Virus record (IMG/VR): IMGVR_UViG_3300046839_000055
Coordinates: 1-64,000 of that record
Direction: 5' to 3' (one strand)
Source of the DNA: a virus
Lineage: Duplodnaviria > Caudoviricetes
DNA length: 64,000 nucleotides
Below are positions 749 to 62,456 of the stretch, in pieces. The position numbers and the translations under genes are program-made. The notes below the pieces were generated by a model. The model was not told the DNA's origin. It saw only the letters and a program-made list of their open reading frames with translations, and ran no database searches. Every line of letters begins with the position of its first letter. Position 1 is the first letter of the stretch.

Positions 749-970
749 CATCGCTGGCAGAACTTGCTGCCGAAGCGCTTTTCTCTCAAGGTTCATGTTG
801 TCTCCAATCAGGTTCTTACACTCAAAACGAAACCCCTAACATGAAAAATCAAAATGTATGAATTCTTAAAATGTTTAGCAGTCGAAAAGATGTCTTCCAT
901 ATATCGTCTCATCAATGCTGCATGGTCGATATAAACAGTATGTGCTTTTATTAGGCGTACAAACGTACAA

Positions 971-1651: not shown

Positions 1652-1730
1652 TTCTAATTCTCCAATTTTAGATCCAGTTATGGGCGTACCTCAGCAAGAA
1701 AATTATATGTAATTGACTCTAGTCCAAAAA

Positions 1731-2870: not shown

Positions 2871-2897
2871 TTAACCGCCCCCAATTCTGTTCTCTTA

Positions 2898-3134
2898 TTA
2901 TTTCCCGCTTGTAATAGTCCAATATTTGATATTTTTCAGATCTGTCCATTCACATAATCCACAAACTTCTATCTTCCTACCGTCTTTGATACGAAGCCCA
3001 TAGTGTGAAACATGCCGGGAGAGCCCAGAAGACAAGGCTTTCTCGGCATGTCCTATGGTACTCGTTCCATTGACCGGTGTGAAAAATCCGCTGTATGGGT
3101 TGCAAGCTCTCGCGTAGTTCATAAGCATTTGCAC
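2898..3134 (-). CDS. Small hypothetical protein or gene remnant
   Basis: 78-aa ORF with AGGAGG nearby, co-oriented with neighbours; no motif recognised. Confidence 0.3.
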   Translation of the reverse strand: MQMLMNYARACNPYSGFFTPVNGTSTIGHAEKALSSGLSRHVSHYGLRIKDGRKIEVCGLCEWTDLKNIKYWTITSGK

Positions 3135-3212
3135 CCTCCTGCGTAACTCCTAATAAGAATAATTAAAACGTATGTGTATCGTTAAAAAGTGTTGAGCCAT
3201 TAAAAGGCTCTC

Positions 3213-6299: not shown

Positions 6300-6324
6300 T
6301 ACTCTTGCTCTGCTTTCTTACTCA

Positions 6325-10784: not shown

Positions 10785-11719
10785 TTCTCCTTTAACGTCT
10801 TAAAGACAACCGATTTTTCTTTTCTCCAGTCATATATCTTACAAAGCACCGCATCCGGTTCTTCTTCCGGGGCATCCGGCAGTTCCGGATATAGATCAAA
10901 CAACGACATCTGGTGGTATTCCTCATATGGCTTTCCAAGCGGAACCGTGTCCTTGAGCCCATCCATCTGCCAGATGTTCCATGCGATTTTATTTGCCACC
11001 TGCCGCAAAAGCTTTTCTTCCGGGTCTTTCTCCCAGCGTTCCGTGTAGTAGTCAATGAATGACAGCAGGAGATTCACCCGTGCGATCAGGAGATTGTCTC
11101 CCTGATATTCATATCCATAAGATGCTTCAAATGCCCGGATCGTCCATTTGAGCCATTCATCATATGTATCGGTGTTTTCATTCACAATCCTAAGCTTTCT
11201 GTCGAGCTGCCCGATTCTGTGTTTCGGCGGAACAATCAGTTCACCGGTGGAGACGTCATATCGGGACACGAGGTACGGCGCTTCACCGCAGGTGATTTCA
11301 AGTCGCCGGGAATCCACGTAATGTTTCCACGTTTTTCGCTTCGGAAACTCAATTGGATCTTCTATCACCGTCCAGGTGTGGTCATCATTTTCTGTGTTAA
11401 ATACATTTTTCCTGCCGAACCATTCCTCATCGCAGTAGTTGTTCATCATGTTACAGAGCCATGCCGGAGTGAAGACCTCTGCTTTTTTCCGGGTTCGTTC
11501 CGCCTGCGCTTCGAGTGATTTCTGAATACGCGGCTTGATGATGTCTGCATGTTTCAGAAGCAGATTCCTGTCGATCTGCTCTTTATCTGTAAATCCATAG
11601 CCGTATTCCTCGTAGGTGTCCGTCGCCCAGATGATGTTCTTCTTTGTCGATTTATCCTGAAGAAGAATATCAAGGAGCGACGCTACAGACGCACTTCCTA
11701 TATCTATTAACTTTTCCAC
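10781..11719 (-). CDS. Methyltransferase N-terminal (SAM-binding) half
   Basis: AEVFTP (motif X), RLEITCGEAPYL (motif I), YGYEYQGDNL; no NPPY; 4-nt overlap with next gene. Confidence 0.8.
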   Translation of the reverse strand: MEKLIDIGSASVASLLDILLQDKSTKKNIIWATDTYEEYGYGFTDKEQIDRNLLLKHADIIKPRIQKSLEAQAERTRKKAEVFTPAWLCNMMNNYCDEEWFGRKNVFNTENDDHTWTVIEDPIEFPKRKTWKHYVDSRRLEITCGEAPYLVSRYDVSTGELIVPPKHRIGQLDRKLRIVNENTDTYDEWLKWTIRAFEASYGYEYQGDNLLIARVNLLLSFIDYYTERWEKDPEEKLLRQVANKIAWNIWQMDGLKDTVPLGKPYEEYHQMSLFDLYPELPDAPEEEPDAVLCKIYDWRKEKSVVFKTLKEK

Positions 11720-11794
11720 TAAGACAGCGCCCCTCCTTTCTCATTCCTCTGTTATCGTCTTGTTTTTTATATGATAGGCAATGCCTGTGTTCAT

Positions 11795-12052
11795 TTACTT
11801 TTCTCCATCCTGCTCCGGTTTCTGATTCATGTCTTCTCCCGGCGTGCCCTCCTCAAGTTCCATAATATCTTCAAGCTGGCAATGTAATCCTTCGCATATT
11901 CTTACAAGAACATCCGTCGTGATATTTCCGCATTTGCCCATTTTTGCTATTGAAGCAGAGCTTAATCCGCATAACTTTCTGAGATCCTGCTTGTTCATGT
12001 CTCTGTCAATTAACAGTTTCCATAGCTTCTTATATGTAATGTGCATTTTCAA
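11795..12052 (-). CDS. Cro/C1-type (HTH_26-like) regulator, possible controller of the RM genes
   Basis: YKKLWKLLIDRDMNKQDL...SIAKMGK...LVRICEGL. Confidence 0.85.
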   Translation of the reverse strand: MKMHITYKKLWKLLIDRDMNKQDLRKLCGLSSASIAKMGKCGNITTDVLVRICEGLHCQLEDIMELEEGTPGEDMNQKPEQDGEK

Positions 12053-12060
12053 CCCTTTAT

Positions 12061-13710
12061 TCAGGCGTTATTAGCCTGCCCTTTTTTATTGAATTTCCAG
12101 CCAAACAATGACTCTGCGTCACGGTCGAGATGCAATACCTGTGTTTGTGTAAGAATCTCCTTTGTTTTAGGAGAAGCATTCTTATCAAATGCAATAAAGA
12201 TCTGTCTGCCTTTTGCCATATCCCGGTAAATTTCCATCAATTGCTCCACCACATCATTGTTCATGTTCGGATAGAAATTGGAGTCATGTATTATGAAAGG
12301 AATCCGGCCTGTTTCAAAGACAGCAAGATCAAAAAGAAGCAATCCTTCATTTCTAGAGCTTTGTCCGTTGTCATTTCCCGTATCTAACTCGTAAGATTTT
12401 GAGCTCTTTATATTGATGTAGGGCGGCACAATCTCTGTGCCAAATAGCGACCGACACAACTCCCGCATCGATTTATTGACTGGAGCAAGAACCTTGCTCA
12501 TTGTCATAACAACCAACGCATCAAGCTCTTCCTGCTTCTGCTCACTTTCCTTCTTTACTTTTTCCTTATTGTCAAATGCATCGTTCGCTTGCTGCAGCAC
12601 CTGCATCTCTGAGTTCAATTTCGAATATCGATCAAGTATGGCCTTGGCGACATTGGGAATCCTTCGGATTTCTATCTGTTCTTTTTCCAGCTGATCGATT
12701 TTTTCGTCTGCAAGAACAATCATTGCATCCACATCATTCTCACTATCCTTCAGCTGCTTACGGAGGATTTTCATCAGACCGCGATGGAAATCATCAATTT
12801 TAGAAAGCCGCTCTACATTGACATCAGGGAAGAAAGCTAGAAGATCAGAATAATCTTTAGGGAAAGATTTCTTTGTCTCTTCATAGCTTCGGTTGATTGC
12901 ATTACGCTGTGCAACCAACCGCGTTTTTTGCCGTCTGAAGTTGGATAGTTCTTCTCTTACAACTCTCAGCTGGTCCGCTTGTTCTGACGAAAGATCCAGT
13001 AGCCCTTCGCTGCTCTTCATGGCCAATTCATCCATTTCAGCTTTCAGCACTTCTATTCTTGCTGCATTTTCTTTGTACTCCGTCTTGCCTTTTGCACTCT
13101 TGATATAGGTGAACTTAACGGCATCCTGATATGTCTCATCACGCTCCTTGGCTTCCTTTGCTGTATTTCTCGGAATCTCTAATTCTTCATATTTGCCGAA
13201 AAGCTGAGACATTTTGAAGATAGCATCCTCGTCAGTTTCTCCTTTGGCTTCCTTAAATGGTTTGCTTTCATCCATCGTATCCCGATGATCTACACGAATA
13301 AATCGACTCATTGCACTGCGAAATGAAAGTCCGTATTCTGTCAGTCCATATTGCAGAGCCAGAAATTTATGGTAATTGTCAATTGTCATATCGCCATTCG
13401 GAAGTGGCTTATAGTCCTGATCGCATTGAGTTACAACTTTTTTATTATCCGTGGATCGCGTAAAATAATATGATTTTCCATCGAATTCCATTTTGAAATC
13501 AATGGAATGCTCACCGACATTATCCCGGACTGCTTTGCACTTTTTATAGTAATCGTCCCCGCCAAATACGAAATCAATTATGAGTAAAAACGTAGACTTT
13601 CCTGCAGAGTTAGTTCCTTCCTCAGTTCCTACGACGGTATTCAGCCCTTCGTGAAAAGTGATAGTCTGTATTCCTTGTCTGAATTTACTGCATCGTATTT
13701 CTTTCAACAT
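12061..13710 (-). CDS. lmuB: ABC-three-component/Lamassu SMC-like ATPase (DUF2326-type)
   Basis: Start at 13710 after AGGAGG; FHEGLNTVVG..NSAGKST Walker A, long coiled coil, C-terminal FIIHDS Walker B. Confidence 0.85.
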   Translation of the reverse strand: MLKEIRCSKFRQGIQTITFHEGLNTVVGTEEGTNSAGKSTFLLIIDFVFGGDDYYKKCKAVRDNVGEHSIDFKMEFDGKSYYFTRSTDNKKVVTQCDQDYKPLPNGDMTIDNYHKFLALQYGLTEYGLSFRSAMSRFIRVDHRDTMDESKPFKEAKGETDEDAIFKMSQLFGKYEELEIPRNTAKEAKERDETYQDAVKFTYIKSAKGKTEYKENAARIEVLKAEMDELAMKSSEGLLDLSSEQADQLRVVREELSNFRRQKTRLVAQRNAINRSYEETKKSFPKDYSDLLAFFPDVNVERLSKIDDFHRGLMKILRKQLKDSENDVDAMIVLADEKIDQLEKEQIEIRRIPNVAKAILDRYSKLNSEMQVLQQANDAFDNKEKVKKESEQKQEELDALVVMTMSKVLAPVNKSMRELCRSLFGTEIVPPYINIKSSKSYELDTGNDNGQSSRNEGLLLFDLAVFETGRIPFIIHDSNFYPNMNNDVVEQLMEIYRDMAKGRQIFIAFDKNASPKTKEILTQTQVLHLDRDAESLFGWKFNKKGQANNA

Positions 13711-13924
13711 AATGCAGCACCTCCTTCTTTTCATCGAGTTCGACACGGCCCAAGATATACAGACAATCCAGTACCTCAACAAAATCAGCAATCGGTATCT
13801 TCTTCTCGACCTTCTTATAAAGTTCTATCGGCGACATATCAATAACTCGCAATTCTTTCAGAACAGTCGGAAATTCTGCCAGTGTGCTCTTTTTATAGGG
13901 TGTAACCCTGCTTGGCATGCGCAT
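13685..13924 (-). CDS. lmuC: ABC-three-component middle component (LmuC-like)
   Basis: 79-aa gene between effector and ATPase; MRMPSRVTPYKKS...LDCLYILGRVEL. Confidence 0.75.
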   Translation of the reverse strand: MRMPSRVTPYKKSTLAEFPTVLKELRVIDMSPIELYKKVEKKIPIADFVEVLDCLYILGRVELDEKKEVLHYVERNTMQ

Positions 13925-13940
13925 ACGTAATCCTATCCTT

Positions 13941-15128
13941 TCATGAAACAGCTTCGAAAATTGCACAGTTTTGAATAAAGAAAGCTACTACGATATGACT
14001 TGCAGTGCTGTACTCGTCCTCAAGGCCATTCTTGGAGAGCATCCATTCCGCAATTTTGTCACAGATCTCCTGCTGATTCATTCCCAGATCCTTGTACTTC
14101 AGATATATCGAATTAACTTCTGACCGGATCACGTCATATTTGGTATTTGAATTGGTCCCGTCGATTGAAAAATTCTGCTCAACATACGAATAATAGTGAT
14201 TCACCCAATCCTCAACGGTTCCCTTCAGATTAAAGTTCTCTGGTGTGAATTTCTCATCCAATGTCAAAGCCTCTCGAATAGGTAGCAATTGCACAGAGGA
14301 TTTCACTTGTGAAACCGCTTTGATGACATCTACAATCTCAGTCTCAATAGTTGACTCTGATGAAATTTCCTGTTCTTTCATCATTCTGGATAGGGATTCC
14401 TTTTTTCGAAACAGGTCCTTATAAGTATCCTCAGTCGGATCCAGTAGATAATTCTCTGCACAATCCGGGCATAACGCTATCTGGTTGTCAGCACTCATTG
14501 ATTTCGCTGGTCTCGGCGCAATTGCATTGAAACTCGTCTCAAGATCTGCAGATAAATCATCCGGATATATTTTTACAACTCTATAACGATTCAGAATTTT
14601 ACCGTGGACTTTCTTCCATAATTTTTTTCCACACTGAGGGCATGTTTGATGCACCTCATGTAAGAAATAGAAGTCATTGCTTTTCACGATATATTCAGGG
14701 AGCGTATTTCGTTTTCCCAGCGCATAAAGTATTGCATCCGTGAAGAACTGTTCAAAATCGCCTGCATCATGTTCCTTTTGCAGCCTATCAACCAAATCTC
14801 CAGGTACATTCTCGTCATTTTTCATTTGCTGAAAAATTGCGAATGATGCCTGCATCTGGTTCAACGGGCTCAAATGATGCTCCAGAATCTCCTTCACTCT
14901 TGTCTTCGCATACGCAATCACGTCCTTATTATTTATTGCCGCCTGGATCGCTTCATGAACCTCATTTCTCCTTTTCACAAGATTCGTCACCATCTTGTCA
15001 TCCACATTTACATTTACCGAGTCGTGTTCCGCCACTGTATTGAGCAACATTTTCCCTGCTTCATTCTGCGATACACCCATGCAGAACTGCATTTCCTTAA
15101 TTAAAAAAGAAATATTGTACTCGCTCAT
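13941..15128 (-). CDS. lmuA: ABC-three-component effector (LmuA-like): N-terminal helical extension, HNH-like zinc domain, conserved C-terminal domain
   Basis: Start 15128 after GGAGG; CPQCG...NQIALCPDC; C-terminal IVVAFFIQNCAIF. Confidence 0.75.
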   Translation of the reverse strand: MSEYNISFLIKEMQFCMGVSQNEAGKMLLNTVAEHDSVNVNVDDKMVTNLVKRRNEVHEAIQAAINNKDVIAYAKTRVKEILEHHLSPLNQMQASFAIFQQMKNDENVPGDLVDRLQKEHDAGDFEQFFTDAILYALGKRNTLPEYIVKSNDFYFLHEVHQTCPQCGKKLWKKVHGKILNRYRVVKIYPDDLSADLETSFNAIAPRPAKSMSADNQIALCPDCAENYLLDPTEDTYKDLFRKKESLSRMMKEQEISSESTIETEIVDVIKAVSQVKSSVQLLPIREALTLDEKFTPENFNLKGTVEDWVNHYYSYVEQNFSIDGTNSNTKYDVIRSEVNSIYLKYKDLGMNQQEICDKIAEWMLSKNGLEDEYSTASHIVVAFFIQNCAIFEAVS

Positions 15129-15158
15129 ACCAGAGAACCACCTCCTCGGCAGAAAAAT

Positions 15159-15250
15159 GATTGCAATTTGAGGGCAAAACGAGAGCAAAGACTTTCAGCA
15201 TCTGCTCCATTAAACTTTTAAGTAAAGAAAGGGATCCCTTTCTTAAAAGT
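15159..15250. promoter_or_regulatory. Divergent control region: three 11-bp-phased GAnnGCAA repeats and a 20-bp perfect palindrome
   Basis: GATTGCAA/GAGGGCAA/GAGAGCAA at 15159, 15170, 15181; AAGAAAGGGATCCCTTTCTT at 15225-15244. Confidence 0.55.
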
Positions 15251-39100: not shown

Positions 39101-40372
39101 ATGAATAATATTTATGCTAATGATGAACTCGCAAAAGCTACTGCTGTTGCCCAGTTCCGTTTCGCACTGATCGCTCCTGTAATCCAGGGGCTTTATTCTG
39201 ATGCCAGTGCCACGGAGTATTACAAACGGATCACGGAAAAACCGCTGAAGCTTCCAGACGGAACTGCTGTGACATACAGCTACAAGACCGTTGAAAAGTG
39301 GGCATCGATGTACAAACGTGGTGGTTATGATGCACTGATGCCCCAGGCCCGTTCTGACAAAGGTTCTGCCAGAGCGCTCTCTGATGCGGCCATCGAGGAG
39401 ATCTACAAGGTCAAGGAGAAGTTTCCGAGGCTGAACGCCACACAGATCTATCACCACCTTGTTGGCAACGGTCTTCTCTCCTCAAAAGTCAATGTCTGCT
39501 CTGTCCAGCGCTTCATCAGACGTAACGATCTCAAGTCGGCCAGAAATCCCAACGTACGGGACCGCAAACAGTTCGAGGAGGACGCTTTCGGGCGTATGTG
39601 GCAGGCTGATACCTGTTACCTGCCGCACATCACCGAGGACGGGCAGGTCCGCCGCGTCTATGCCATCATGATCATCGATGACCATTCGAGGCTCCTCGTC
39701 GGCGGCGAACTGTTCTACAGTGACAATGCCGCCAACTTCCAGAAAGTATTCAAAGACGCCATCGCAGCCTACGGCATCCCTTCAAAGCTCTACGTCGATA
39801 ACGGCTGTTCCTATGCCAATGAACAGCTTTCCCTCATCTGCGGCAGCCTCGGCGTTGTACTGCTCCACACAAGAGTACGCGACGGCGCCTCCAAAGCGAA
39901 GATCGAGCGCAGCTGGTTAACACTCAAGGAGACCTGGCTGTACAAGCTGGATATGGAGTCCATCCACTCCCTGGCGCAGTTCAACGGCATGCTCAGGGAA
40001 TATATGCGTTCTTATAACACTTCCTTCCATTCCGGGATCGGCTGTACGCCCATGGACCGGTACCTGAAGACAAAGGACCAGATCAAGGCTCCTACCTCAC
40101 AGGAATGGCTGGATGAATGTTTTCTCAACCGGATCAACCGACGCGTGAAGAAAGATGCCACTGTCTCCATCGATAAAGTCAGTTACGACGTGCCCATGCA
40201 GTTCATCGGGCAGAGCGTTGAGATCCGCTTCCAGCCCAGCGACATGAGCACAGCCTTCATCCTTTACGATAAAAAGCGCTTCCCGATCCGTCAGACCAAC
40301 CGTGTAGAGAACTGCCACACGAAGCGTGATAACATCACGATCGACTACGCGAAGATCGGAGATGCATCATGA
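39101..40372 (+). CDS. DDE transposase with Mu-type C-terminal domain
   Basis: WQADT, IIDDHSR, LYVDNG, KAKIER; RRVKKDATVS. Confidence 0.93.
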   Translation: MNNIYANDELAKATAVAQFRFALIAPVIQGLYSDASATEYYKRITEKPLKLPDGTAVTYSYKTVEKWASMYKRGGYDALMPQARSDKGSARALSDAAIEEIYKVKEKFPRLNATQIYHHLVGNGLLSSKVNVCSVQRFIRRNDLKSARNPNVRDRKQFEEDAFGRMWQADTCYLPHITEDGQVRRVYAIMIIDDHSRLLVGGELFYSDNAANFQKVFKDAIAAYGIPSKLYVDNGCSYANEQLSLICGSLGVVLLHTRVRDGASKAKIERSWLTLKETWLYKLDMESIHSLAQFNGMLREYMRSYNTSFHSGIGCTPMDRYLKTKDQIKAPTSQEWLDECFLNRINRRVKKDATVSIDKVSYDVPMQFIGQSVEIRFQPSDMSTAFILYDKKRFPIRQTNRVENCHTKRDNITIDYAKIGDAS

Positions 40373-41181
40373 GCAGTTTTACAGCGTACTACGGGCTTAC
40401 CTGCAATCCGTTCGACAAGCAGTCACTGAAGGAAAGGGATCATTTCGAGTCCTCGGATTTCAAAGAAATGACTAGCCGCCTGAATTATCTCAAGGACGTG
40501 CGTGGGATCGGCGTTTTTACCGCGCGTCCCGGGATGGGCAAGACCTTTGTCCTGCGCTGCTTCGCCGCCGGACTCAACCCAAACCTGTACCACATGGCTT
40601 ACATCTGCCTGTCCACCGTAGGCGTCACAGATTTCTATAAAGAGTTCTGCGGCATCCTTGGCGTCAGCCAGAAAGGCAGCAAACCGGCGTTGTTCAAGGC
40701 GATCCAAGAGCAGATCTATTACCTGTACAAAGAGAAGAGGCAGCCGCTGATCCTTGCGATAGATGAAGCGCAGGAGCTCTCCACCTCGATCCTGAACGAT
40801 CTGAAGATGATCATGAACTTCAGATACGATTCCCTGAACTGCTTCACACTCATCCTTGTGGGAGAATCCCAGCTGAACATAAAGCTCTCTCTTCCCATCC
40901 ACGAAGCGATCCGTCAGCGGATCACTGTTCACTATGACTTTAAGGGGCTCACTGCAGATGAGATCCCGGCATATGTGCGGCATAAGATCCATGTCGCCGG
41001 AGGAGCCGATTCCATTATTGACGATGCTGCTATGGCGTCAGTCCATTCCCTGTCGCAGGGTAATCCCCGGGTCATCGATACGCTGATGACGGATGCCCTG
41101 ACTATCGGCGCCCAGATGGATAAAAAGGTCATCGACGCTGAAGTTATCATGGCCGCCGCAAATAACCGGCAGCTCGGATGA
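40369..41181 (+). CDS. ExeA-type AAA ATPase (transposition helper)
   Basis: ARPGMGKT, AIDEAQ, LILVG, GNPR; ATGA overlap with the transposase. Confidence 0.88.
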   Translation: MSSFTAYYGLTCNPFDKQSLKERDHFESSDFKEMTSRLNYLKDVRGIGVFTARPGMGKTFVLRCFAAGLNPNLYHMAYICLSTVGVTDFYKEFCGILGVSQKGSKPALFKAIQEQIYYLYKEKRQPLILAIDEAQELSTSILNDLKMIMNFRYDSLNCFTLILVGESQLNIKLSLPIHEAIRQRITVHYDFKGLTADEIPAYVRHKIHVAGGADSIIDDAAMASVHSLSQGNPRVIDTLMTDALTIGAQMDKKVIDAEVIMAAANNRQLG

Positions 41182-52705: not shown

Positions 52706-52753
52706 TAATACGGGCCCCCAGAGGGATGTATAGTGACGGAAAGGAGTGATTTT

Positions 52754-54544
52754 ATGGCAAAGATCACAAAGATTGAGCCGACGATACCGAGCTTACCTAC
52801 TCGTAAGAAAGTCGCCGCTTATGCCAGAGTTTCTATGGAGACCGAAAGGCTCCATCATTCCCTGTCCGCACAGATCAGCAGCTACAGTAAACGGATTCAG
52901 GATAATCCTGAATGGGAGTATGTTGGCGTTTACGCGGACGAAGGGATCTCCGGAACAGGCACAGAAAAAAGGCCTGAGTTTCGGCGCATGCTTGCCGACT
53001 GCGAGGATGGAAAAATCGATATCATCCTCACAAAGAGCATCAGCCGGTTTGCCCGGAACACCGTAGATCTTCTGAATACGGTCCGACACTTAAAGGAGCT
53101 CGGCATTGAAGTCCGCTTCGAAAAGGAAAACATCAATTCACTCTCCGGCGACGGCGAGGTGATGCTCACGCTCCTCGCATCTTTTGCGCAGGAAGAAAGC
53201 GTCAGCATCAGCAACAATGTAAAATGGGGGATCCGCAAACGGATGCAGTCCGGCCTTCCTTATGCCAATGGTCACATGAACGTCTACGGCTATCGCTGGG
53301 AAGGCGACGAAATGGTCATCGTACCAGAAGAAGCCGCCGTCGTAAAGAGAATCTTCCAGAACTTTCTGGATGGGAAGTCGCGGCTGGAAACAGAACGGGA
53401 ATTTGCCGCTGAAGGCATTACTACCCGCCAAGGTTGTCGCTGGGAGGATTCCAACATTCGAAAAGTGCTGGAAAACGTCACCTACACCGGAAACATGCTT
53501 TTTCAGAAGGAATTCGTCTCGGATCCCATCAACAAACATCGCAGGAAGAACCGCGGCGAGCTTCCACAATATTTCGTAGAGAATACCCACGAAGCGATCA
53601 TCGATTATGACACATGGAAATACGTGCAGGATGAAATGGAACGACGCAGAGAACTCGGGCCTCTGGCGAATAAGAGCCTGAACACCTGCTGCTTCACCGG
53701 CAAGATTAAATGCCCATACTGCGGATACAGCTATATGCATGAGCACAGAACGAAGAACGGACATTATCAGGAATTCTGGGTCTGTGGCAGCTATAAGAAA
53801 AAGAAGAAAGGCAATGGATGCCCTGTCGGCGGCACAATCAATCACAAGAATCTGAAGAAAGTCTGCGCGGAAGTGCTGGGTCTTCCCGAATTTGATGAAA
53901 ACATCTTTCTCGAAAAGGTTGATCACATCGATGTTCCCAAGCGGTACGTCCTTACGTTTTATCTGAAAGACGGAACAACAATAACAAAACCGTGTCCGAA
54001 TACCAGCCATCAGGATTGCTGGACCGCAGAGTATCGGGCAGAAACTTCACGGAAGCGCCGGAACAGCCCCAGAGCCAAAGGTGTGACCGCCCTCTCCGGG
54101 CGAATCAAATGCTCTGCCTGCGGCTGCAACTTTCGCCGCTGCACGCAGCCTGCTTCCAATCCGGCCAAACCGAAGATGCACTACTGGCGTTGTGCCGAAC
54201 ACAGCAATGGATGCATTACCGTCGGATTGCGCGAGGATGTTTTGAAACCGCTCATCGCTGAAATGATGGAGATCCCGGAATACGACGAAGAGCAGTTCAA
54301 AAATCAGATGGAAGCCATCTATGTAATGGACAAGGATCTTCTTGAATTTCATTTCAAGGATGGACGCATCAAGACTACACACTACGTTCCTCCGGAGAAA
54401 ACCTTCACTCCACGCAGTGAGGAAGCCAGAGAACACATGCGGCAGCTTATGAAAGATAGATGGACGCCAGATCTTAAAGCTGAGATGGGCGAGAAGATGA
54501 AAAAGATAAGGAGCGAGAAATATTGGAGCAGCAAAAGAAAGTAA
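52754..54544 (+). CDS. Large serine recombinase 1
   Basis: AAYARVS, YADEGISGT, KSISRFARN; recombinase domain; two zinc-ribbon modules. Confidence 0.95.
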   Translation: MAKITKIEPTIPSLPTRKKVAAYARVSMETERLHHSLSAQISSYSKRIQDNPEWEYVGVYADEGISGTGTEKRPEFRRMLADCEDGKIDIILTKSISRFARNTVDLLNTVRHLKELGIEVRFEKENINSLSGDGEVMLTLLASFAQEESVSISNNVKWGIRKRMQSGLPYANGHMNVYGYRWEGDEMVIVPEEAAVVKRIFQNFLDGKSRLETEREFAAEGITTRQGCRWEDSNIRKVLENVTYTGNMLFQKEFVSDPINKHRRKNRGELPQYFVENTHEAIIDYDTWKYVQDEMERRRELGPLANKSLNTCCFTGKIKCPYCGYSYMHEHRTKNGHYQEFWVCGSYKKKKKGNGCPVGGTINHKNLKKVCAEVLGLPEFDENIFLEKVDHIDVPKRYVLTFYLKDGTTITKPCPNTSHQDCWTAEYRAETSRKRRNSPRAKGVTALSGRIKCSACGCNFRRCTQPASNPAKPKMHYWRCAEHSNGCITVGLREDVLKPLIAEMMEIPEYDEEQFKNQMEAIYVMDKDLLEFHFKDGRIKTTHYVPPEKTFTPRSEEAREHMRQLMKDRWTPDLKAEMGEKMKKIRSEKYWSSKRK

Positions 54545-56106
54545 GAACCATTCCGGCCACGCTGACCCGGTTCACTTCTTCCCCGATCGAGGAGAAAAAG
54601 AAGCGCCGGGTCGCCGGATATGCCCGCGTCTCGACTGATCATGACGATCAGTTCACAAGCTACGAGGCGCAGATCGACTACTACACGAATTATATCAAGA
54701 TCCGTGATGACTGGGAATTCGTCAGGGTTTACACCGACGAAGGTATCACCGGCACCAGCACGAAGCACCGCGAAGGGTTCAAACAGATGGTTGCGGATGC
54801 GCTGGCCGGAAAGATCGACCTGATCGTTACGAAATCCGTCAGCCGTTTTGCACGAAACACGGTTGATTCCCTCACCACCATCCGGAAGCTGAAGGATAAA
54901 GGAGTCGAGTGCTATTTTGAGAAGGAAAATATCTGGACCTTCGACGGCAAGGGCGAGCTGCTTATCACGATCATGTCCTCGCTGGCACAGGAGGAATCCC
55001 GCAGCATTTCCGAGAACTGTACATGGGGACAGAGAAAGCGATTCGCTGATGGCAAGGTCACGGTTCCCTTTAAGCGCTTCCTCGGGTACGACCGCGGTCC
55101 GAATGGCGAGCTGATCGTAAATAAGGAACAGGCAGAAACGGTAAAACACATCTACGACATGTTCCTGCAGGGACGGACGTATCACGGAATTGCCAAGACA
55201 CTCACCGAGGAAGGTATCAAATCACCGGGCGGCAAGGATCAGTGGAGCCAGAGCTCCGTCAAGAGCATTCTCAGCAACGAGAAATACAAAGGCGACGCCC
55301 TGCTCCAGAAATCCTACACCGTCGATTACCTGACGAAGAAAACCAAGGTGAATGAAGGCGAGATCCCTCAGTACTACGTCGAAGGAAATCACGAGGCGAT
55401 CATTCCTCCTGAAAAATTCGACATGGTACAGCGGGAAATGGCGAAACGCGGTAAGGGCAAAAAATACCACAGCGGTGTGCATCCATTCTCCAGCAAGATC
55501 AAGTGCGGCCAGTGCGGAAGCTGGTACGGCTCGAAGGTCTGGCATTCGACAGACAAGTACCGCCGGACGATCTGGCAATGCAACCACAAGTACGATGGCG
55601 GCGAGCGCTGCTCCACTCCTCACCTGACTGACGAGCAGATTCAGGATGCCTTCCTGTCGGCGGCAAACAAGCTGCTGGCCACAAAAGACGCAGTCATCGC
55701 CAACGGCAAGGCAATGCTGACGCTCCTCTTTGATACCTCAGAACAGGAAGCCGAACGTGACAAGCTGCTGGAAGAAGCGCAGGTTGTTTCCGATGCTGTT
55801 CAGAAGAACATCTACGAGAACGCCCATGTTGCCCTCGACCAGAAGGCTTACCAGAAAAAGTACGACGGCCTGACCGGACGGTACGAAACGCTCAAGACCC
55901 GCATCGAGGAGCTAAACGACCAGATCAGCCAGCTGCAATCACAGAAAGGCAGCGTCGAGGATTTCCTTGCCGCCTTTGAGAAACTGCCGGAAACCCTGAC
56001 CGCGTTCTCCCTTGACGCATTTAACGCCCTGACGGATTACCTCACGGTCAATGGCGAGGGCGACATCAGCGTAACCTTCCGCAACGGCCAGACCATCAAG
56101 GCATAA
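54523..56106 (+). CDS. Large serine recombinase 2
   Basis: AGYARVST, YTDEGITGT, KSVSRFARN; zinc ribbon and coiled coil. Confidence 0.95.
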   Translation: MEQQKKVRTIPATLTRFTSSPIEEKKKRRVAGYARVSTDHDDQFTSYEAQIDYYTNYIKIRDDWEFVRVYTDEGITGTSTKHREGFKQMVADALAGKIDLIVTKSVSRFARNTVDSLTTIRKLKDKGVECYFEKENIWTFDGKGELLITIMSSLAQEESRSISENCTWGQRKRFADGKVTVPFKRFLGYDRGPNGELIVNKEQAETVKHIYDMFLQGRTYHGIAKTLTEEGIKSPGGKDQWSQSSVKSILSNEKYKGDALLQKSYTVDYLTKKTKVNEGEIPQYYVEGNHEAIIPPEKFDMVQREMAKRGKGKKYHSGVHPFSSKIKCGQCGSWYGSKVWHSTDKYRRTIWQCNHKYDGGERCSTPHLTDEQIQDAFLSAANKLLATKDAVIANGKAMLTLLFDTSEQEAERDKLLEEAQVVSDAVQKNIYENAHVALDQKAYQKKYDGLTGRYETLKTRIEELNDQISQLQSQKGSVEDFLAAFEKLPETLTAFSLDAFNALTDYLTVNGEGDISVTFRNGQTIKA

Positions 56107-56164: not shown

Positions 56165-56938
56165 CTAATCCCAATTAATAAGATCAACCAACTTAAGTGG
56201 CTTTTTGCATTTAGGGCAAATCATGCCATTTTTCTTTTCATAGCTTGATTCCGGGACAACAGTCATTTTGCCGCCACATTTTTCACATCTGTGGTCATAC
56301 TCCGCATACAGATCATAATATTCCTGCATGTCGTAACTGGTTACATATGAAGCGTCCTCAAACGGAAAAGCTACTGACCACCTTCTTCCTTTTTCTTTTG
56401 GCGGTCGTTGCTTATCCTCTTTCGGTACATACGCATTCAAAATCGGTCTGGAATCATACTCACCGCAATCGCAGCATTGCAAAATAACGACCTCTGGATC
56501 AATCGCGGCATCTGGATGAGCGCTTAATAACTCCTTGAGTTCATTACCAAACTCTCCGTTTTTTGCTGCTTCGATGGTTTCCTCATAAACTTTAGGATCA
56601 AAAAACAGAGCGGTAATCAACTTCTGTTTTTCCGGGCTGAGACGCTTGAGGCAGGTTAGCATTTTTTCGATCATCACGGCCTTAATCGCGGCATCGTCCA
56701 CATCTTCGTCATCGGAGGGAAACTGCTTGTTTCCCTCCAGAAGCCGTTCGTATGAGTCTTCTCGGCTGGGGAGATATGTAACAGTTCCGCTGGTGGAATC
56801 GATTCGGCATCGCTCGGCTTTGATGTCATACTGCAGGTATTCCATCTGACGGTCGCTCTTTTCTAAAACCTCAATGATTTCTTTGCTCACACCGGGATAT
56901 TTTGCTTGATAATCCGTTATTTTCTGATATTTTGCCAT
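56165..56938 (-). CDS. Chimeric ORF: sigma-70 r4 protein 5' part (56938-56597) fused in frame to the 3' part of a zinc-ribbon protein (56596-56165)
   Basis: ...CLKRLSPEKQKLITALFFD | PKVYEETIEAAKNGEFG...CCDCG..CEKCG..CPKCK. Confidence 0.85.
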   Translation of the reverse strand: MAKYQKITDYQAKYPGVSKEIIEVLEKSDRQMEYLQYDIKAERCRIDSTSGTVTYLPSREDSYERLLEGNKQFPSDDEDVDDAAIKAVMIEKMLTCLKRLSPEKQKLITALFFDPKVYEETIEAAKNGEFGNELKELLSAHPDAAIDPEVVILQCCDCGEYDSRPILNAYVPKEDKQRPPKEKGRRWSVAFPFEDASYVTSYDMQEYYDLYAEYDHRCEKCGGKMTVVPESSYEKKNGMICPKCKKPLKLVDLINWD

Positions 56939-57017
56939 AGTGTCTGTCATCCATCTCGTGATTGTTGAAATCTGAAAATGAAAAATAAGCGACGGAACTC
57001 GGCAGCATGATATAACT

Positions 57018-57076
57018 GCAAGCAAAAAAACAGGAACGTACTTGTGAGCACGGTTGCCCACAGGTATGCTCCTGTA
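57018..57076 (-). terminator. Terminator in the leader of the second sigma gene
   Basis: Minus strand AGGAGCATAC-CTGTGGGCA...TGCTCACAA-GTACGTTCCT followed by a T run. Confidence 0.55.
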
Positions 57077-57363
57077 AATTATTTCATATTTTATCTGCTC
57101 TGATGGTTCGTGCTGCTGCCCGCGCTGTTTCCTTGAAAAGCACAGGTTTTTTTGACGAGCTATCGGTTAGAAAAGCGGTGTGTAGCGGATTGTGATCCGT
57201 TGCATCACGCTCGACCGCTACTTAATAGCGGTCGCCTGAAATTCATGGTAAATTGAGCAGACATAGAAACCCTCCAGACTGGTGAGCTTGAAGGGTTACG
57301 GTATTGCTTATTCAGGCATGAAGATAGACCCGCCAAACTCACGCTTTTTTGTAGCGCTTTTTT

Positions 57364-57475
57364 TAATTTGATCGAAACAAACGAATTGCGCCGCGTGAAA
57401 AAACACCATCTAATAGCTGTATATCTCCCTTGGCAATGATCAGCCCAAGTCCAGTTCCTTTTTCAGTATTGAAGG
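57364..57475 (-). pseudogene. Remnant of a sensor histidine kinase C-terminus
   Basis: Minus-strand translation FNTEKGTGLGLIIAKGDIQLLDG contains the G2 box. Confidence 0.6.
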
Positions 57476-57490
57476 TCGGCATGATTCATC

Positions 57491-58876
57491 TCAATTGTCG
57501 TGCGGGCCTTCATCCAACTTTTTTATCGCTTTTCTGAATTCTTTCGCAAACACAATACCAGTACAGATCACCGCAGCAGTATCTGAAATCGGTTCGGCAA
57601 GATACACGGCTACTGTCTTATCAGGTAGCAGCATGGGGAGAAGATAGATGAGTGGGACCAACATGATAAATTTTCGGAATACTGCTACGAAAATTGAAGC
57701 CTTGGCATTCCCGAGGGAGATAAAGGTCATCTGGCAGGCTATCTGAACGCCCATAATAAACATGGCACCGGCGTAGATACGTAATGCACTTTTAGTATAC
57801 GCCACCATTGCGGTATCATTTGTAAATAATGAGGCAAAAACCTGCGGAAATATCTGCACGGCAACCCACAGCAATACGGAATAGGTACAGCAACAGATCA
57901 AAAGCAGTCGAAAGGTCTGCTTGACACGAGCTGAATTGTGAGCACCAAAGTTGTAGCTGAAGATCGGCTGAGCACCTTGCGCAAAACCCTGCATCGGCAG
58001 CATGGCAAACTGCATCACAGTGCTCAGAATCGTCATGGCACCCACGGCAATATCTCCGCCATATTTCAGCAAGGAGGAATTGAAGCAGATAGAAATGATG
58101 CTTTCGCTTGCCTGCATTATAAACGGAGCTGCACCCAGTGCTACGCAGGACAGAAGGACATTGTCAAATCTGATATTTTTCATCCGGAGCTTGATGCTGC
58201 TTTTTGGGGAAGTGAGAAAATGAATTACCCACACGCAACTGATTCCTTGAGATATGATTGTCGCCAGAGCTGCTCCGCGCACCCCCATGTTCATGCCGAA
58301 GATCATGATTGGGTCAAGGATAATATTACAGATTGCCCCGATCAAAACCGTGTACATGCTTACTTTTGCATAACCCTGCGCCGTGATAAATGCATTCATG
58401 CCCAAGGTTAATTGTACAAAGACGGTACCAATCGCATAGATGTTCATGTACTGGGATGCATAGCCGATGGTGTTTTCACTGGCCCCAAACATTAAAAGCA
58501 AGGGTCGGTTCCAAATTAGCAGGGCTGCGGTAAGCACAGCGGAGATTACAAGCTGCAAGGCAACGCAGCTGCCCATAATGTGCTCGGCTCCCTCGTCGTT
58601 TTTTTTGCCCATCTCAATGGAAGCATTGGGCGCTCCTCCCATCGCAACCAGCATGGCGAAAGCCGACACGATGATAATGAGCGGTGTGCACACGCCCAGA
58701 CCGGTAAGCGCCAACCCGCCAACCTCTGGCATATGGCCGATGTAGATACGATCCACAATGTTGTATAGAACATTGATCAGTTGGGCAAGAATTGCTGGTA
58801 CAGAAAGGCGAAACATAAGCGGCCTGATTGGTTCTGTACCGAGGAAACTCTTATCTTCATTATGTGCCTTTTCCAT
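57491..58876 (-). CDS. MATE-family efflux transporter
   Basis: LYNIVDRIYIG, NIILDPIMIFG.NMGVRGAALAT, GFAQGAQP; many TM segments. Confidence 0.95.
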   Translation of the reverse strand: MEKAHNEDKSFLGTEPIRPLMFRLSVPAILAQLINVLYNIVDRIYIGHMPEVGGLALTGLGVCTPLIIIVSAFAMLVAMGGAPNASIEMGKKNDEGAEHIMGSCVALQLVISAVLTAALLIWNRPLLLMFGASENTIGYASQYMNIYAIGTVFVQLTLGMNAFITAQGYAKVSMYTVLIGAICNIILDPIMIFGMNMGVRGAALATIISQGISCVWVIHFLTSPKSSIKLRMKNIRFDNVLLSCVALGAAPFIMQASESIISICFNSSLLKYGGDIAVGAMTILSTVMQFAMLPMQGFAQGAQPIFSYNFGAHNSARVKQTFRLLLICCCTYSVLLWVAVQIFPQVFASLFTNDTAMVAYTKSALRIYAGAMFIMGVQIACQMTFISLGNAKASIFVAVFRKFIMLVPLIYLLPMLLPDKTVAVYLAEPISDTAAVICTGIVFAKEFRKAIKKLDEGPHDN

Positions 58877-58905
58877 AATTGTCCTCCGTTTCTTTTGTCT
58901 TTCCA

Positions 58906-59358
58906 TCAGTCCGTTGATTCTTTCGGTTTCACGTTGTAGAAGCGGCGGACATTGTCAATGATTCGATCAAAAGAGTCGAAGAACTGCCTTTTCTCATCTT
59001 CCGAAAACCCGTCACCGATCTTTTTCATGAATTCTTCCTGTTGTTCTTGCCCATAACGGACTATCTCATCGGCCTTTGGAGTAATAAACAAACAAATCCG
59101 CTTTCTATTCGCCGAGTCTACTTTTTTGCAAATGTACCCTTTTTTATAAAGCTCGTCTGTCGCCAGTGAGACGTGAGATTTGGATATTTTTCGTACAGAT
59201 ACAATATCGGCAGCCGTATTAAGGCCGCCGTTGTTCGCAAGGAATAACATAACATCTACTTCTATTGCCGAGAGAGAATATTTGTTCATAACTTTTCTGC
59301 GGTGAAAATTATAGGCGCTTTCAACTTCTTTGAGCATGTTCAAAAAATTGTTTTTCAT
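58906..59358 (-). CDS. MarR-family regulator
   Basis: LSAIEVDVMLFL..ISKSHVS..KGYI..DSANRKR..IT. Confidence 0.9.
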   Translation of the reverse strand: MKNNFLNMLKEVESAYNFHRRKVMNKYSLSAIEVDVMLFLANNGGLNTAADIVSVRKISKSHVSLATDELYKKGYICKKVDSANRKRICLFITPKADEIVRYGQEQQEEFMKKIGDGFSEDEKRQFFDSFDRIIDNVRRFYNVKPKESTD

Positions 59359-59383
59359 ATGTAATTACCTCACGCACCTTAGT

Positions 59384-59433
59384 GTTCGATTTTGAACACG
59401 TAAAATTATAGTTCAAAATCGAACGGTTGTCAA
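59384..59433 (-). promoter_or_regulatory. Consensus sigma-A promoter with two GTTC-N6-GAAC operators
   Basis: Minus strand TTGACA(59433-59428)-17 bp-TATAAT(59410-59405); operators at 59384-59397 and 59411-59424 are exact inverted copies. Confidence 0.85.
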
Positions 59434-59715
59434 GACGAAAATCTGATAGGGCATGTTTTAAAATGCTAATTCGATAGGGTTATCTTAGATGGTGAGCATA
59501 AAAAAATAATTACTTTTTCCTTATTGAAAAAATCATTTCCCAATCAAACCAGCAAACGTTTTGACCCCACGTCATGTTCAGGTGTTCCTCGGAGTTGTGC
59601 CGCACTCGCCATGTTCTACATTACCATACGAACAATACTAATTGTCCCTATTTTACTATCATCTCCAAAGGATAGCTCCCCCTCGCCTTTATGCAGCGAG
59701 GGGGAGCCGAGAGCT

Positions 59716-59901
59716 TCATTCATTCATGAGTCTTTTTAATTTCGCCAAGATTTTTATCTTTCGGTCGTGAATGGTCCGCTGTGGAACACCAGTTTCTCTG
59801 GACACCTGATGCTCGCTTTTATTATATAAAAAACCAACACCAACATTTGCGCCAAAACTGTATTTACAATCTGGGCACTCCCAGCCATATCCCATTCCCA
59901 T
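59716..59901 (-). CDS. Reciprocal chimeric ORF: zinc-ribbon protein 5' part (59901-59824) fused to sigma r4 HTH 3' part (59823-59716)
   Basis: MGMGYGWECPDCKYSFGANVGVGFLY | NKSEHQVSRETGVPQRTIHDRKIKILAKLKRLMNE. Confidence 0.85.
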   Translation of the reverse strand: MGMGYGWECPDCKYSFGANVGVGFLYNKSEHQVSRETGVPQRTIHDRKIKILAKLKRLMNE

Positions 59902-59913
59902 AAAATCAACTCG

Positions 59914-61278
59914 CTATTCAAAGACAACTATGTAATCCGCAGTCATATCATCAAATGTTGTATCGACCGAAGCAATTACCTCATTTAGTTCTTCATACAA
60001 AATGCCGCGCACATATGCATCTCTGGCATTTGGCTTGTCAAGCAGCACCCATTTCAACTGTTGATATGAATATTTTGCGAAGGCAATCCACTGCGGATAG
60101 TTAATTGCCATCGGATTCTGCGTAAAATAAACCTTCCCGGCATTAACAGCTGTTGCAGCCGAGTGGCCTATAAACAGCATTGTTGCGAGCTTGGGATGCT
60201 TTTCGCGGTTCAGGGAAAATGGAATTGACTCTTTTACAGAATGTCCTTCCTTAATGCGCTTGAAGGCATATCCAATCCGGGTTACTACTTCTACAATCAT
60301 TACCGGAATCGAAAGCGTGCAGAAATGTATAAAGTCATACCCCTCGTAATACATGCCCTGCACGATTTCCGCTATGGTCTGTTCGTACTCACCGATTTTC
60401 CCAAATTGCAGAAGATTAAACAGTGCCATCATAGGAGCCGGTAGTCCCATTGATGTCGTGATATCCGATTTGAAATGTATGATCTGCTTGGCTATAGCTG
60501 CAAAAACATCTGTCTCCTTGCGGTCAGCATAATTCTCCATAACCTGAACTACAATCTTTCCGGTTTTATCAATGGTGGTCATTCTCCCAGTAAGAATATC
60601 TGCCACACCAAAAATCAATCCAAGCAATGGATCGTGACCAAGAGAAAGCAGGCGATGGTAATATGCAGAAAGCCCGTCAACATACTGCGTAGTGTTCCGG
60701 TTATCCTGAGCGTCGTATGGAACCTTGCTGACCTTCGAGTTTGCCAACTTCTCCATTTCCTCTTCAGGAAATTTCTTATCGAACCAGTCTCTTACATAGT
60801 TGGCCAGTGTCCCACCTTTTAACCCATCTGGAGTTTTCTGCGGAATGCCTACCAACAAAACATCAACAGCCGCTCCAAGCAGACCAGCTGCAACACTGAT
60901 TGCAATGTCATATTTGTCCAGATGGTGCAACTGATTATACTCAGCATTTAGCATCCGGATTTCTTGGCTGTTGCGCTTCAGCTCTGCTTCTGTAAAAATT
61001 GATTCAAGCGGATGCCCCGTGCCTACAGAGTTTTCCGCTTCAAGGCATAGTTGCTCCCAAGAAGGTACCACCATTACCTTTTTTACTACATCGTGCTTTG
61101 GTACCGTCGGCATTTCTGTATACCCCAACATACGGAGCAAGTCTTCACTTTCCTGAATCCTTTTATCAAGCTCGGTCGTTGAAGGCATAGTAGCCTTAAT
61201 CTTCTTAAGCTCCTCATCTTGGTATTTTAGAACATCATTTATCTGTTGTTCAGTTTCAGAATACTTGTATTTACTCAT
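59914..61278 (-). CDS. Uncharacterised protein with coiled coil and several hydrophobic segments
   Basis: About 454 aa; IAISVAAGLLGAAVDVLLVG; YHRLLSLGHDPLLGLIFG. Confidence 0.8.
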   Translation of the reverse strand: MSKYKYSETEQQINDVLKYQDEELKKIKATMPSTTELDKRIQESEDLLRMLGYTEMPTVPKHDVVKKVMVVPSWEQLCLEAENSVGTGHPLESIFTEAELKRNSQEIRMLNAEYNQLHHLDKYDIAISVAAGLLGAAVDVLLVGIPQKTPDGLKGGTLANYVRDWFDKKFPEEEMEKLANSKVSKVPYDAQDNRNTTQYVDGLSAYYHRLLSLGHDPLLGLIFGVADILTGRMTTIDKTGKIVVQVMENYADRKETDVFAAIAKQIIHFKSDITTSMGLPAPMMALFNLLQFGKIGEYEQTIAEIVQGMYYEGYDFIHFCTLSIPVMIVEVVTRIGYAFKRIKEGHSVKESIPFSLNREKHPKLATMLFIGHSAATAVNAGKVYFTQNPMAINYPQWIAFAKYSYQQLKWVLLDKPNARDAYVRGILYEELNEVIASVDTTFDDMTADYIVVFE

Positions 61279-61669
61279 CGTCAGCCTTCTTTTTTTCAAG
61301 CTCTGCGATCTGATTCTTCAGTTCCTGAATCTCTGATTGCAAGCCGCTCATCTCTTTCTTTAATCTGGAATCATAAGCAAGAAGCCGATCTTGTCTTTCT
61401 TTGTCCATCTCAGCCTTGGCATCCAGTTCCTTTATAACAGCATTGTGTTTTGCAAGAGCCTTTTTATAAAGCTCCTCCTTTTCCTCAGCCTGCTTTTGGT
61501 ATTTTCTGATTAAAAAGAATGCACTTATTGTCGCAGGCAATCCAGTCAAAACGCCTATCTGAAAGTTCCGATCTTTCACGACATCAACGACTGCTTTCCC
61601 CGCCTTTACCAAACCGTCACCAGCCTTATCAAGCATGGGTGCCAGCTTATTTAAATTGAATTTGCTCAC
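61271..61669 (-). CDS. TM + coiled-coil protein
   Basis: IGVLTGLPATISAFFLI then EKEELYKKALAKH... Confidence 0.8.
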   Translation of the reverse strand: MSKFNLNKLAPMLDKAGDGLVKAGKAVVDVVKDRNFQIGVLTGLPATISAFFLIRKYQKQAEEKEELYKKALAKHNAVIKELDAKAEMDKERQDRLLAYDSRLKKEMSGLQSEIQELKNQIAELEKKKADDE

Positions 61670-61683
61670 CGCTTCTCCTCACT

Positions 61684-62271
61684 TTATGCAACTCCTAAAT
61701 CATGTTGCAAATCCTTGATAGCCTGCTGTAACAGAATATTGAGACTCTGCAGATAATCCATTCGTTCCTTGTCTGCATCAGCTTCTGATTTCATAGCCTT
61801 AATAATAGCCTCGTGTTTTTTCAGCGCCTCTTTGTATAAACGCTCTTTTTCCTGTCTAAGCTGTTTATTCTTCAGATGAGAGGCAACACCAACGCCTGCA
61901 GCAGCGAGACCGGCTACCGGAGCAGCGAGCACAAATACGCCAGCAACCATACCACCTCCGACAAGGGCTCCTGCCGTAGCCAAACCGGACGTAATACCTG
62001 CTGCTGAGAGTCCAACAACTCCGAGCCCATAAAGCGCTGCAAAGGAACCCACTCCACCAATACCAGCACCCAGCGCACCGGCCAGCACTTCTGGAATAGC
62101 ACTTTCTCTTATAGTGCGATTCTTATCATTTAGTGCCTCCGCAGCCTCATTCACAACATTAACGACAGACTGCATAGATTCAACACTCTGAAAGTTCATG
62201 TCCTTTTTCTTTTTGACATAGGTATCCTTTTTCTTGGATATATCCTTTTTGCTTTCACTCATGGTGTTCAC
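61684..62271 (-). CDS. Glycine-zipper membrane + coiled-coil protein
   Basis: About 70-aa Gly/Ala-rich hydrophobic tract then EKERLYKEALKKH... Confidence 0.8.
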   Translation of the reverse strand: MNTMSESKKDISKKKDTYVKKKKDMNFQSVESMQSVVNVVNEAAEALNDKNRTIRESAIPEVLAGALGAGIGGVGSFAALYGLGVVGLSAAGITSGLATAGALVGGGMVAGVFVLAAPVAGLAAAGVGVASHLKNKQLRQEKERLYKEALKKHEAIIKAMKSEADADKERMDYLQSLNILLQQAIKDLQHDLGVA

Positions 62272-62456
62272 CTTCCATTTTCCTTCTGAAGTATCCTCGG
62301 CAAAGTCTCCAGAAAATGTTTTCCTATTTTCTCGGCATCATAATCGTAAGCCTCACAGATAAACCGAAGCCCATCCGGCGTGAGAATCCGACCGTTATTT
62401 CTATCTTTACACAGCTGCTCATAATCTGCCAGCTGCTTCTTTGTTATTGTCGGCAT
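62268..62456 (-). CDS. Small hypothetical protein, first gene of the operon
   Basis: AGAGGT RBS; overlaps next gene. Confidence 0.65.
   Translation of the reverse strand: MPTITKKQLADYEQLCKDRNNGRILTPDGLRFICEAYDYDAEKIGKHFLETLPRILQKENGR

Follow-up and report, generated by a model that had tools for sequence, protein, structure and literature searches.

A Recurrently Mobile, Recombinase-less marR-MATE Unit Inserted in Permuted Form into a Gene of a Bunzi-like Defence Operon

The window considered here is a stretch of 64,000 nucleotides, corresponding to positions 1 to 64,000 of the IMG/VR virus record IMGVR_UViG_3300046839_000055 (Caudoviricetes), in which a unit of 3,227 bp (56597-59823) containing a marR gene, a MATE efflux gene and a permuted sigma-like gene interrupts the gene of a zinc-ribbon protein. 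This unit is recurrently mobile and recombinase-less, and it is neither a one-off accident nor a sigma-factor switch, both of which had been envisaged in an earlier interpretation based on the letters of the window only (hereafter, the sequence-only reading). In particular, it has the features of a recurrently mobile hitch-hiker because it is also seen as a circle and in other defence genes, opened at differing points; circle-like assemblies and whole-unit insertions at other loci thus support recurrent mobility rather than a single event. The most likely mechanism appears to be the action in trans of resident serine recombinases on pseudo-sites.

Structure of the Unit and its Insertion in the Window

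The two ends of the insertion are marked by chimeric open reading frames (ORFs) on the minus strand. The ORF 56165-56938(-) encodes 114 sigma-like residues (...LITALFFD) followed in frame by 143 C-terminal zinc-ribbon residues (PKVYEETIEAAKNG...), and the ORF 59716-59901(-), of 61 codons, encodes 26 zinc-ribbon residues (...GVGFLY) followed in frame by 35 sigma residues (NKSEHQVSRETGVPQRTIHDRK...), which form the region-4 helix-turn-helix (HTH); the distance between the two joints is 3,227 bp. The ORF translations confirm this reciprocal arrangement, which had been described in the sequence-only reading, and the comparison of the reconstructed parental sites confirms that AT alone is common to both, with one copy at each end of the insertion (Table 1).

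The two parental proteins that were reconstructed by rejoining the halves are real, since many full-length homologues exist (149 aa and 169-171 aa, respectively). The homologues of the sigma/zinc-ribbon chimera (n=166) are mostly sigma-like proteins of 149 aa, among which P0008 and P0097 read straight across the joint (...ALFFDNKSEHQVSRETGVPQRTIHDRK...), and include a smaller group of zinc-ribbon proteins of 159, 169 or 171 aa reading ...GFLYPKVYE... (P0003, P0006 and P0019); the chimeric form of 257 aa is found in none of the 166. The 149-aa protein is best called sigma-like on the basis of its domains, the only part matched being region 4, with PF04545/PF08281 on the homologues and a TIGR02937 score of 37.7 bits against a cut-off of 42.9.

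The predicted empty site (GGTTTTTTATATCCTAAAG) is present exactly in two related IMG/VR contigs, L168 and L169, whose zinc-ribbon protein is the same as the reconstruction at every residue. With respect to the window, these contigs show 99.9% identity to the right of the empty site and 100% identity across the zinc-ribbon 3' part into the neighbouring recombinase gene; in L169 the 100% identity also spans the 58-bp gap between these two genes. The predicted circle joint (CTGTTTTTTGATAATAAAAGC) is in turn present exactly in 14 other loci. Both matches had been proposed as checks in the sequence-only reading, whose claim that a circle with a whole sigma-like gene entered the host-element gene by one reciprocal crossover is supported. 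The zinc-ribbon site was also considered as the attachment (att) site of the prophage that lies in the window, and this possibility is excluded by the identity of L169 into the recombinase gene; no second copy of the zinc-ribbon 3' part was found in the record.

The interrupted gene belongs to a Bunzi-like defence operon (59824-62456) because its 461-aa partner matches the PADLOC model BnzB with an E value of 3.4e-68. This protein is the window counterpart of a 459-aa one that, in L003 and L004, is encoded together with a 171-aa zinc-ribbon protein by a gene pair with overlapping stop and start codons. In the same operon a 195-aa protein matches BnzA weakly (E 5e-05), and the zinc-ribbon, 132-aa and 62-aa proteins have no match among the PADLOC defence models.

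As for the content of the unit, profile searches of its genes found a MarR regulator, a MATE transporter and the sigma-like protein and nothing else; no recombinase gene was found by these searches, in agreement with the sequence-only reading, and an Rfam scan gave a chance-level match only. The inverted repeats found in the unit are the likely operator and terminator, listed with the other features in Table 1. Just downstream of the MATE gene, the unit also holds a histidine-kinase remnant, which looks like the scar of an earlier rearrangement.

Table 1. Features of the unit, of its surroundings in the window and of whole-unit insertions at other loci (positions refer to the window).
Feature	Position	Strand	Remarks
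GmrSD with DUF4268	3213-6299		Defence island (1-15188)
ResIII helicase	6325-9747		Defence island
Eco57I-type methylase	9747-11719		Defence island; apparently split into two ORFs
LmuB-like protein	12061-13791		Defence island
ABC-3C CTD11 protein	13941-15188		Defence island
Two tandem large serine recombinase genes (603 and 527 aa)	52733-54544, 54523-56106	+	Resolvase, Recombinase and Zn_ribbon_recom domains, no DUF4368; candidate catalysts
Zinc-ribbon gene, 3' part (residues 27-169)	56165-56596	-	Continues P0003/P0006/P0019 after ...GFLY; contiguous with the 5' part in L168/L169
Sigma-like gene, 5' part (residues 1-114)	56597-56938	-	Homologues of 149 aa; gene whole in L011, L012 and others
AT overlap, first copy	56597-56598
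Non-coding spacer of the unit	56939-57490	-	Holds the sigma upstream module and the histidine-kinase remnant
Sigma upstream module	from ~57190/57061	-	Homology with L005 begins at ~57190
Histidine-kinase C-terminus remnant (39 codons)	~57361-57480	-	GTGLGL motif; 39-aa ORF at the equivalent place in L170, L174 and L175
MATE family efflux transporter (471 aa)	57491-58906	-	PF01554, E 1.6e-44; TIGR00797, 195 bits (cut-off 147.4)
MarR-family regulator (150 aa)	58906-59358	-	PF12802, 34.2 bits (cut-off 27)
Perfect 14-nt inverted repeat, likely MarR operator	59384-59397 / 59411-59424	-	Overlaps the marR-MATE promoter (feature span 59384-59433)
marR-MATE promoter (predicted), TTGACA-17-TATAAT	59433-59405	-	12/12 match to a perfect sigma-70 promoter
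GC-rich 12-bp hairpin, likely terminator	59675-59707	-	Just past the sigma stop codon
Sigma-like gene, 3' part (residues 115-149 and stop)	59716-59823	-	Region-4 helix-turn-helix
Zinc-ribbon gene, 5' part (residues 1-26)	59824-59901	-
AT overlap, second copy	59824-59825
BnzB-like protein (461 aa)	59914-61299	-	Directly upstream of the zinc-ribbon gene
Whole unit in L010 (3,227 bp)	opened at ~59623 (window equivalent)		Overlap ATG; removal restores a 481-aa CBASS cyclase frame
Whole unit in L093 (3,227 bp)	opened at ~57329		Overlap TC (GA in gene sense); Eco57I-type methylase
Whole unit in L170 (3,227 bp)	opened at 59579		Overlap GA; in a remnant of an Eco57I-type methylase motif
Whole unit in L012 (3,230 bp)	opened at 59579		Overlap TGA; adjoins a GmrSD-like fragment

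Circle-like Assemblies and Sigma Copies

The unit also occurs in circle-like form. L001 is a metaSPAdes scaffold of 3,282 bp with marR, MATE and a whole sigma gene, whose ends overlap by exactly 55 bp to give a circle of 3,227 bp, an assembly that cannot separate a free circle from a tandem array; L171 (3,379 bp) and L002 (3,309 bp) are longer than one unit and have near-identical ends, and these three contigs come from several samples. L089 contains a tandem dimer of two head-to-tail units; L011 has a sigma copy on either side of the unit, and HTH, TerB and BrxD genes come next. Long direct repeats are therefore present in both cases, as sigma copies in L011 and as the dimer in L089, whereas the window copy has only 2 bp. 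Recombination between flanking sigma copies is a plausible source of the circle because the sigma gene of the window is a recombinant between the two types present in L011; the circle may thus originate either from such copies or from tandem arrays.

The sigma module also precedes other cargo, namely TetR and TauE genes in L005 (6880-9069) and a second, diverged marR-type unit in L099, so that sigma plus cargo seems to be an arrangement used repeatedly in these conjugative elements.

Insertions at Other Loci and Preferred Sites

Copies of the unit 97-99.9% identical to that of the window are present in contigs assigned to different Clostridia (Lachnospiraceae, Oscillibacter, Eubacterium and unclassified bins), labels which, for mobile DNA, are to be treated with caution. 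Besides the window, whole-unit insertions were recognized in L010, L093, L170 and L012 (Table 1), and the sigma gene is whole in all four. In L010 both halves of the restored frame match one model of the cyclase of the cyclic-oligonucleotide-based antiphage signalling system (CBASS); in L093 the removal of the unit restores a type II/IIG methylase frame of at least 520 aa, cut between FL and DPGCKSG; in L012 the flanks do not rejoin into one gene once the unit is removed. The exchange is conservative, with a short crossover core identical in both partners, in the window (AT), L093 (TC/GA), L170 (GA) and L010 (ATG), and the overlaps are of 2-3 bp. Other junctions are not counted as circle insertions: those of L096 and L175 are due to insertion sequences of the IS256 and IS21 type, respectively, and further ones in a shared right-hand context are probable deletions.

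The site within the sigma gene is joined at the same nucleotide to three unrelated left flanks, always as T[AT] followed by AAT and in frame: the zinc-ribbon gene in the window, a MerR-like gene in L095 (...YTETDY joined to NKSEHQ, L095:318) and an ORF without known function in L097 (...YKRYY joined to NKSEHQ, L097:90); among the three, the matching right joint is found in the window only. Around the AT, this site shows an imperfect inverted repeat (9 of 13, counted by eye), and the AT-core sites have at-NN-TAA(A) in common on at least one side. A second point of the circle, 59579, is joined to two flanks, one in L012 and another common to L170 and L092. On the target side, a junction falls immediately ahead of the Asp codon in motif I of the methylase (FxDPxCGSG) in L093, L170/L092 and L173 (L093:1582 region, L170:4298, L092:1221 and L173:217), always with GA, and the point of the unit that is joined differs from case to case; the uninterrupted version of that methylase sequence is available in L009 (1566-1652). 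The sigma site and 59579 thus appear as hot spots on the circle and the Eco57I-type methylase motif I as a target hot spot, to judge from these junctions.

At the sigma-site junctions (window 59824, L095 and L097) the upstream ORF is fused to the 35-residue region-4 HTH via a TAT (Tyr) codon; these in-frame fusions are three cases only, and chance is a possible explanation.

The proposal of an att site inside the sigma gene is consequently borne out as far as reuse is concerned, in view of the three different flanks, and does not stand as regards a sole att site, because whole units are opened at ~59623, ~57329 and 59579; there is no one opening point for all insertions. The proposed switch, in which the sigma factor would exist only on the excised circle and drive the efflux operon, is unsupported because most integrated copies keep the sigma gene whole and marR-MATE has its own promoter, overlapped by the likely operator; moreover, the sigma gene ends in a hairpin of its own. 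The split sigma gene of the window is best read as collateral damage of hot-spot use.

All the insertion targets that could be resolved are defence genes. This pattern may simply mirror the content of these cargo regions; it also leads one to ask whether insertions of this kind have a modulating effect on the defence functions of mobile elements.

Mechanism and Rival Explanations

The account proposed here, to which a probability of about one half is assigned, is that the 3,227-bp non-autonomous unit consists of a MarR-regulated MATE efflux operon and a sigma-like gene of the type of integrative and conjugative elements, and would exist as a circle. Circles would be released when the sigma copies on either side of the unit recombine, as may happen in some conjugative-element contexts, or would come from tandem arrays; one of them entered the zinc-ribbon gene of the Bunzi-like operon by a single conservative reciprocal crossover at the common AT, splitting both the sigma-like gene and the zinc-ribbon gene, and circles opened at other points have entered other genes. 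The insertion and its precision, the empty site, the circle-like assemblies, the permutations and the repeated use of sites are shown by the sequences. The catalysts would be large serine recombinases encoded by elements resident in the same host, for which the circle would offer pseudo-att sites to be used in trans.

Base-conserving exchanges with an overlap of 2 (occasionally 3) bp are the product of serine recombinases, which cut DNA with a 2-bp stagger. We infer both the class of the enzyme and the acting enzyme, and trans action by resident serine recombinases is favoured because the exchanges observed are base-conserving with 2-3 bp overlaps, some clostridial enzymes have relaxed target specificity and several serine recombinases are encoded in the record. 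The latter, 158 kb long, contains at least four complete serine recombinases and a fragment of a fifth; one of them, at ~81.1-82.8 kb, has DUF4368, and further recombinase genes lie at ~156-158 kb. Concerning the precedents, a central GA is an invariable requirement of TndX of Tn5397, whose preferred target is a single conserved sequence coding for a protein domain (PMC4430133), a target choice that the three GA-core events at methylase motif I resemble by analogy, and the "multi-targeting" large serine recombinases are characterized by relaxed specificity, by target flanks that are T-rich in 5' and A-rich in 3' and, often, by DUF4368 (PMC10083194). The two serine recombinases adjacent to the unit, indicated as its possible movers in the sequence-only reading, are indeed present about 0.5 kb away, but nothing singles them out for this role, and they have no DUF4368. 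Their best scores are against Ccr models, far below the cut-off.

Several points weigh against recombinase action. No recombinase is linked to any insertion event and, to our knowledge, serine recombinases, relaxed ones included, use one fixed donor site; because the circle was opened at at least four points, several enzymes or a very loose donor recognition would be needed. The natural att cores of phage-type serine integrases have a non-palindromic central dinucleotide that sets polarity, whereas the AT core of the window is palindromic and cannot set it. Patchy short homology between the partner sites of the window and of L010 fits recombinase-independent illegitimate recombination too. Finally, all the evidence comes from metagenome assemblies, in which free circles are indistinguishable from tandem arrays.

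Illegitimate recombination is accordingly a serious rival, if a doubtful one: a non-replicating circle, looped out between sigma repeats, would be integrated at short patches of homology by topoisomerase or gyrase, by replication slippage, or by a type IIG cut (2-nt overhangs) followed by ligation, and selection for the efflux operon would keep the rare products. Such a route would explain the many opening points on the circle and the patchy homology at partner sites, and it agrees with the frequency of deletion-like junctions in the shared sigmaB-HTH-TerB context (L009, L089, L091 and L092), with the Eco57I/MmeI-type enzymes common in the flanks and with the reinsertion of a circularly permuted circle in yeast, as far as it is outlined in PMC3053389. 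It is less easily reconciled with three events in which neither partner lost or gained a base (3,227 bp, frames restored), with the use of the same sigma phosphodiester with three flanks, with the same methylase codon boundary being struck three times and with overlaps that are always of at least 2 bp; in addition, a search for a common type IIS/IIG recognition motif at a constant spacing from the crossover points yielded only the at-NN-TAA next to the core. The dedicated element of the sequence-only reading, with a single att site in the sigma gene, moved by the two adjacent recombinases and working as a sigma switch on the efflux operon, is improbable. The geometry of the window, the threefold use of the sigma site, the imperfect inverted repeat around AT and the vicinity of the recombinases are in its favour, but the other whole-unit insertions retain a whole sigma gene, separate transcription signals accompany marR-MATE (promoter and operator) and the sigma gene (terminator), and L168 and L169 carry homologues of both recombinases beside an intact zinc-ribbon gene, with no unit present.

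The recovery of circular or longer-than-unit contigs from several samples (L001, L002 and L171) could also be due to a small autonomous plasmid with occasional Campbell-style integration, which is quite improbable, as the unit has no replication initiator, its only three genes being all assigned otherwise, shows no iterons or origin-like repeats and has no match among 72,556 plasmid records; a search of phage records with the unit gave no match either. An assembly artefact might be suspected in any metagenome-derived contig such as this record. It would be extremely surprising here, because the two reciprocal joints share only 2 bp with the parents and enclose exactly one unit, a result that de Bruijn misassembly cannot produce, and the same kind of insertion is found in the independent assemblies L010, L093 and L170. 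A Tn916-type tyrosine integrase, whose targets have a T-run, 6 bp and an A-run and whose coupling sequences form a heteroduplex, was also tried as a model and rejected because the joints do not show a 6-7 bp overlap derived entirely from one of the parents; both of them are hybrids that fit a crossover within AT only.

Within the account based on resident serine recombinases, a wider picture can be put forward tentatively. The circle would be a hitch-hiker with several pseudo-att sites which, inserted by these enzymes, repeatedly disrupts anti-phage defence genes (Bunzi-like, CBASS cyclase, type IIG methylase and GmrSD-like) of conjugative elements across Clostridia, the sigma-like genes being the repeats that release it.

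Genomic Context

In the window, a defence island is followed by a prophage with genes for terminase, portal, capsid, tape measure and endolysin; next come the two recombinase genes, then the Bunzi-like operon split by the unit and a relaxase gene. In the tail region of the prophage (39101-41181) there are a DDE transposase gene (rve, Mu-transposase C-terminal domain) and an AAA_22 ATPase gene. Elsewhere in the record, at ~81.1-93 kb (L178:5146-16731), a Tn4451-like mobilizable element lies between the TrbL/VirB6-like and coupling-protein genes of a conjugation module; its cargo includes the DUF4368 serine recombinase, a VapE-like protein, a DnaG zinc finger, a MobA/L relaxase, a kinase, an ABC-F protein and an lnu-like nucleotidyltransferase. 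A search for an empty reference by which to delimit this element (81-93 kb) gave none.

Comparison with Known Systems

Unconventional circularizable structures (UCS), as reportedly defined by Palmieri et al. in 2013, are recombinase-less segments between direct repeats that loop out as a circle keeping one repeat. The unit resembles them in being recombinase-less cargo between direct repeats, that is, the two sigma-like genes in L011 and the dimer in L089. However, the UCS of Gram-positive bacteria, named in PMC7843796, are known for excision, whereas the circle described here re-entered unrelated genes with 2-3 bp overlaps and in several permutations, and, apart from AT, no repeat flanks the copy in the window. 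The staphylococcal cassette chromosome (SCC) and the pseudo-SCC elements, moved by CcrAB, are similar in that recombinase-less cargo is thought to be integrated in trans by large serine recombinases; in contrast, SCC has fixed terminal repeats and one chromosomal site, and the unit has several circle points and many targets.

The elements moved by TndX and TnpX (Tn5397 and Tn4451), as well as the multi-targeting recombinases, share with the unit a 2-bp core (GA for TndX) and relaxed targets, and a conserved domain-coding target is preferred both by Tn5397 (Fic) and by the unit (methylase motif I). Nevertheless, Tn4451 and Tn5397 encode their own enzyme and have fixed ends, whereas the unit is without recombinase and has variable ends; moreover, the window event uses AT and not GA, which is found in some events only. 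Integron gene cassettes are likewise small, circular and non-autonomous gene units that depend for their insertion on an enzyme from another locus; unlike them, the unit has no attC-like fixed end, its opening points being variable and its inverted repeats being operator and terminator rather than attC, and it carries its own promoter and regulator. As far as PMC3053389 outlines it, a 17-kb segment of wine yeasts is also found at several loci in differing permutations, a distribution that implies a circular intermediate; that circle is eukaryotic and recombinase-independent, and the segment is of another kind.

The unit provides a natural bacterial case in which a circular gene unit without a recombinase has been re-integrated repeatedly, documented by exact before/after pairs and several permutations. 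It would extend the idea of circularizable cargo from excision alone to full mobility and would offer efflux or resistance operons a transposase-free way of passing from one conjugative element to another; should resident serine recombinases be responsible, it would also reveal the extent of their natural off-target activity, which matters for their use in genome engineering. The unit is a new variant among circularizable or trans-mobilised cargo units.

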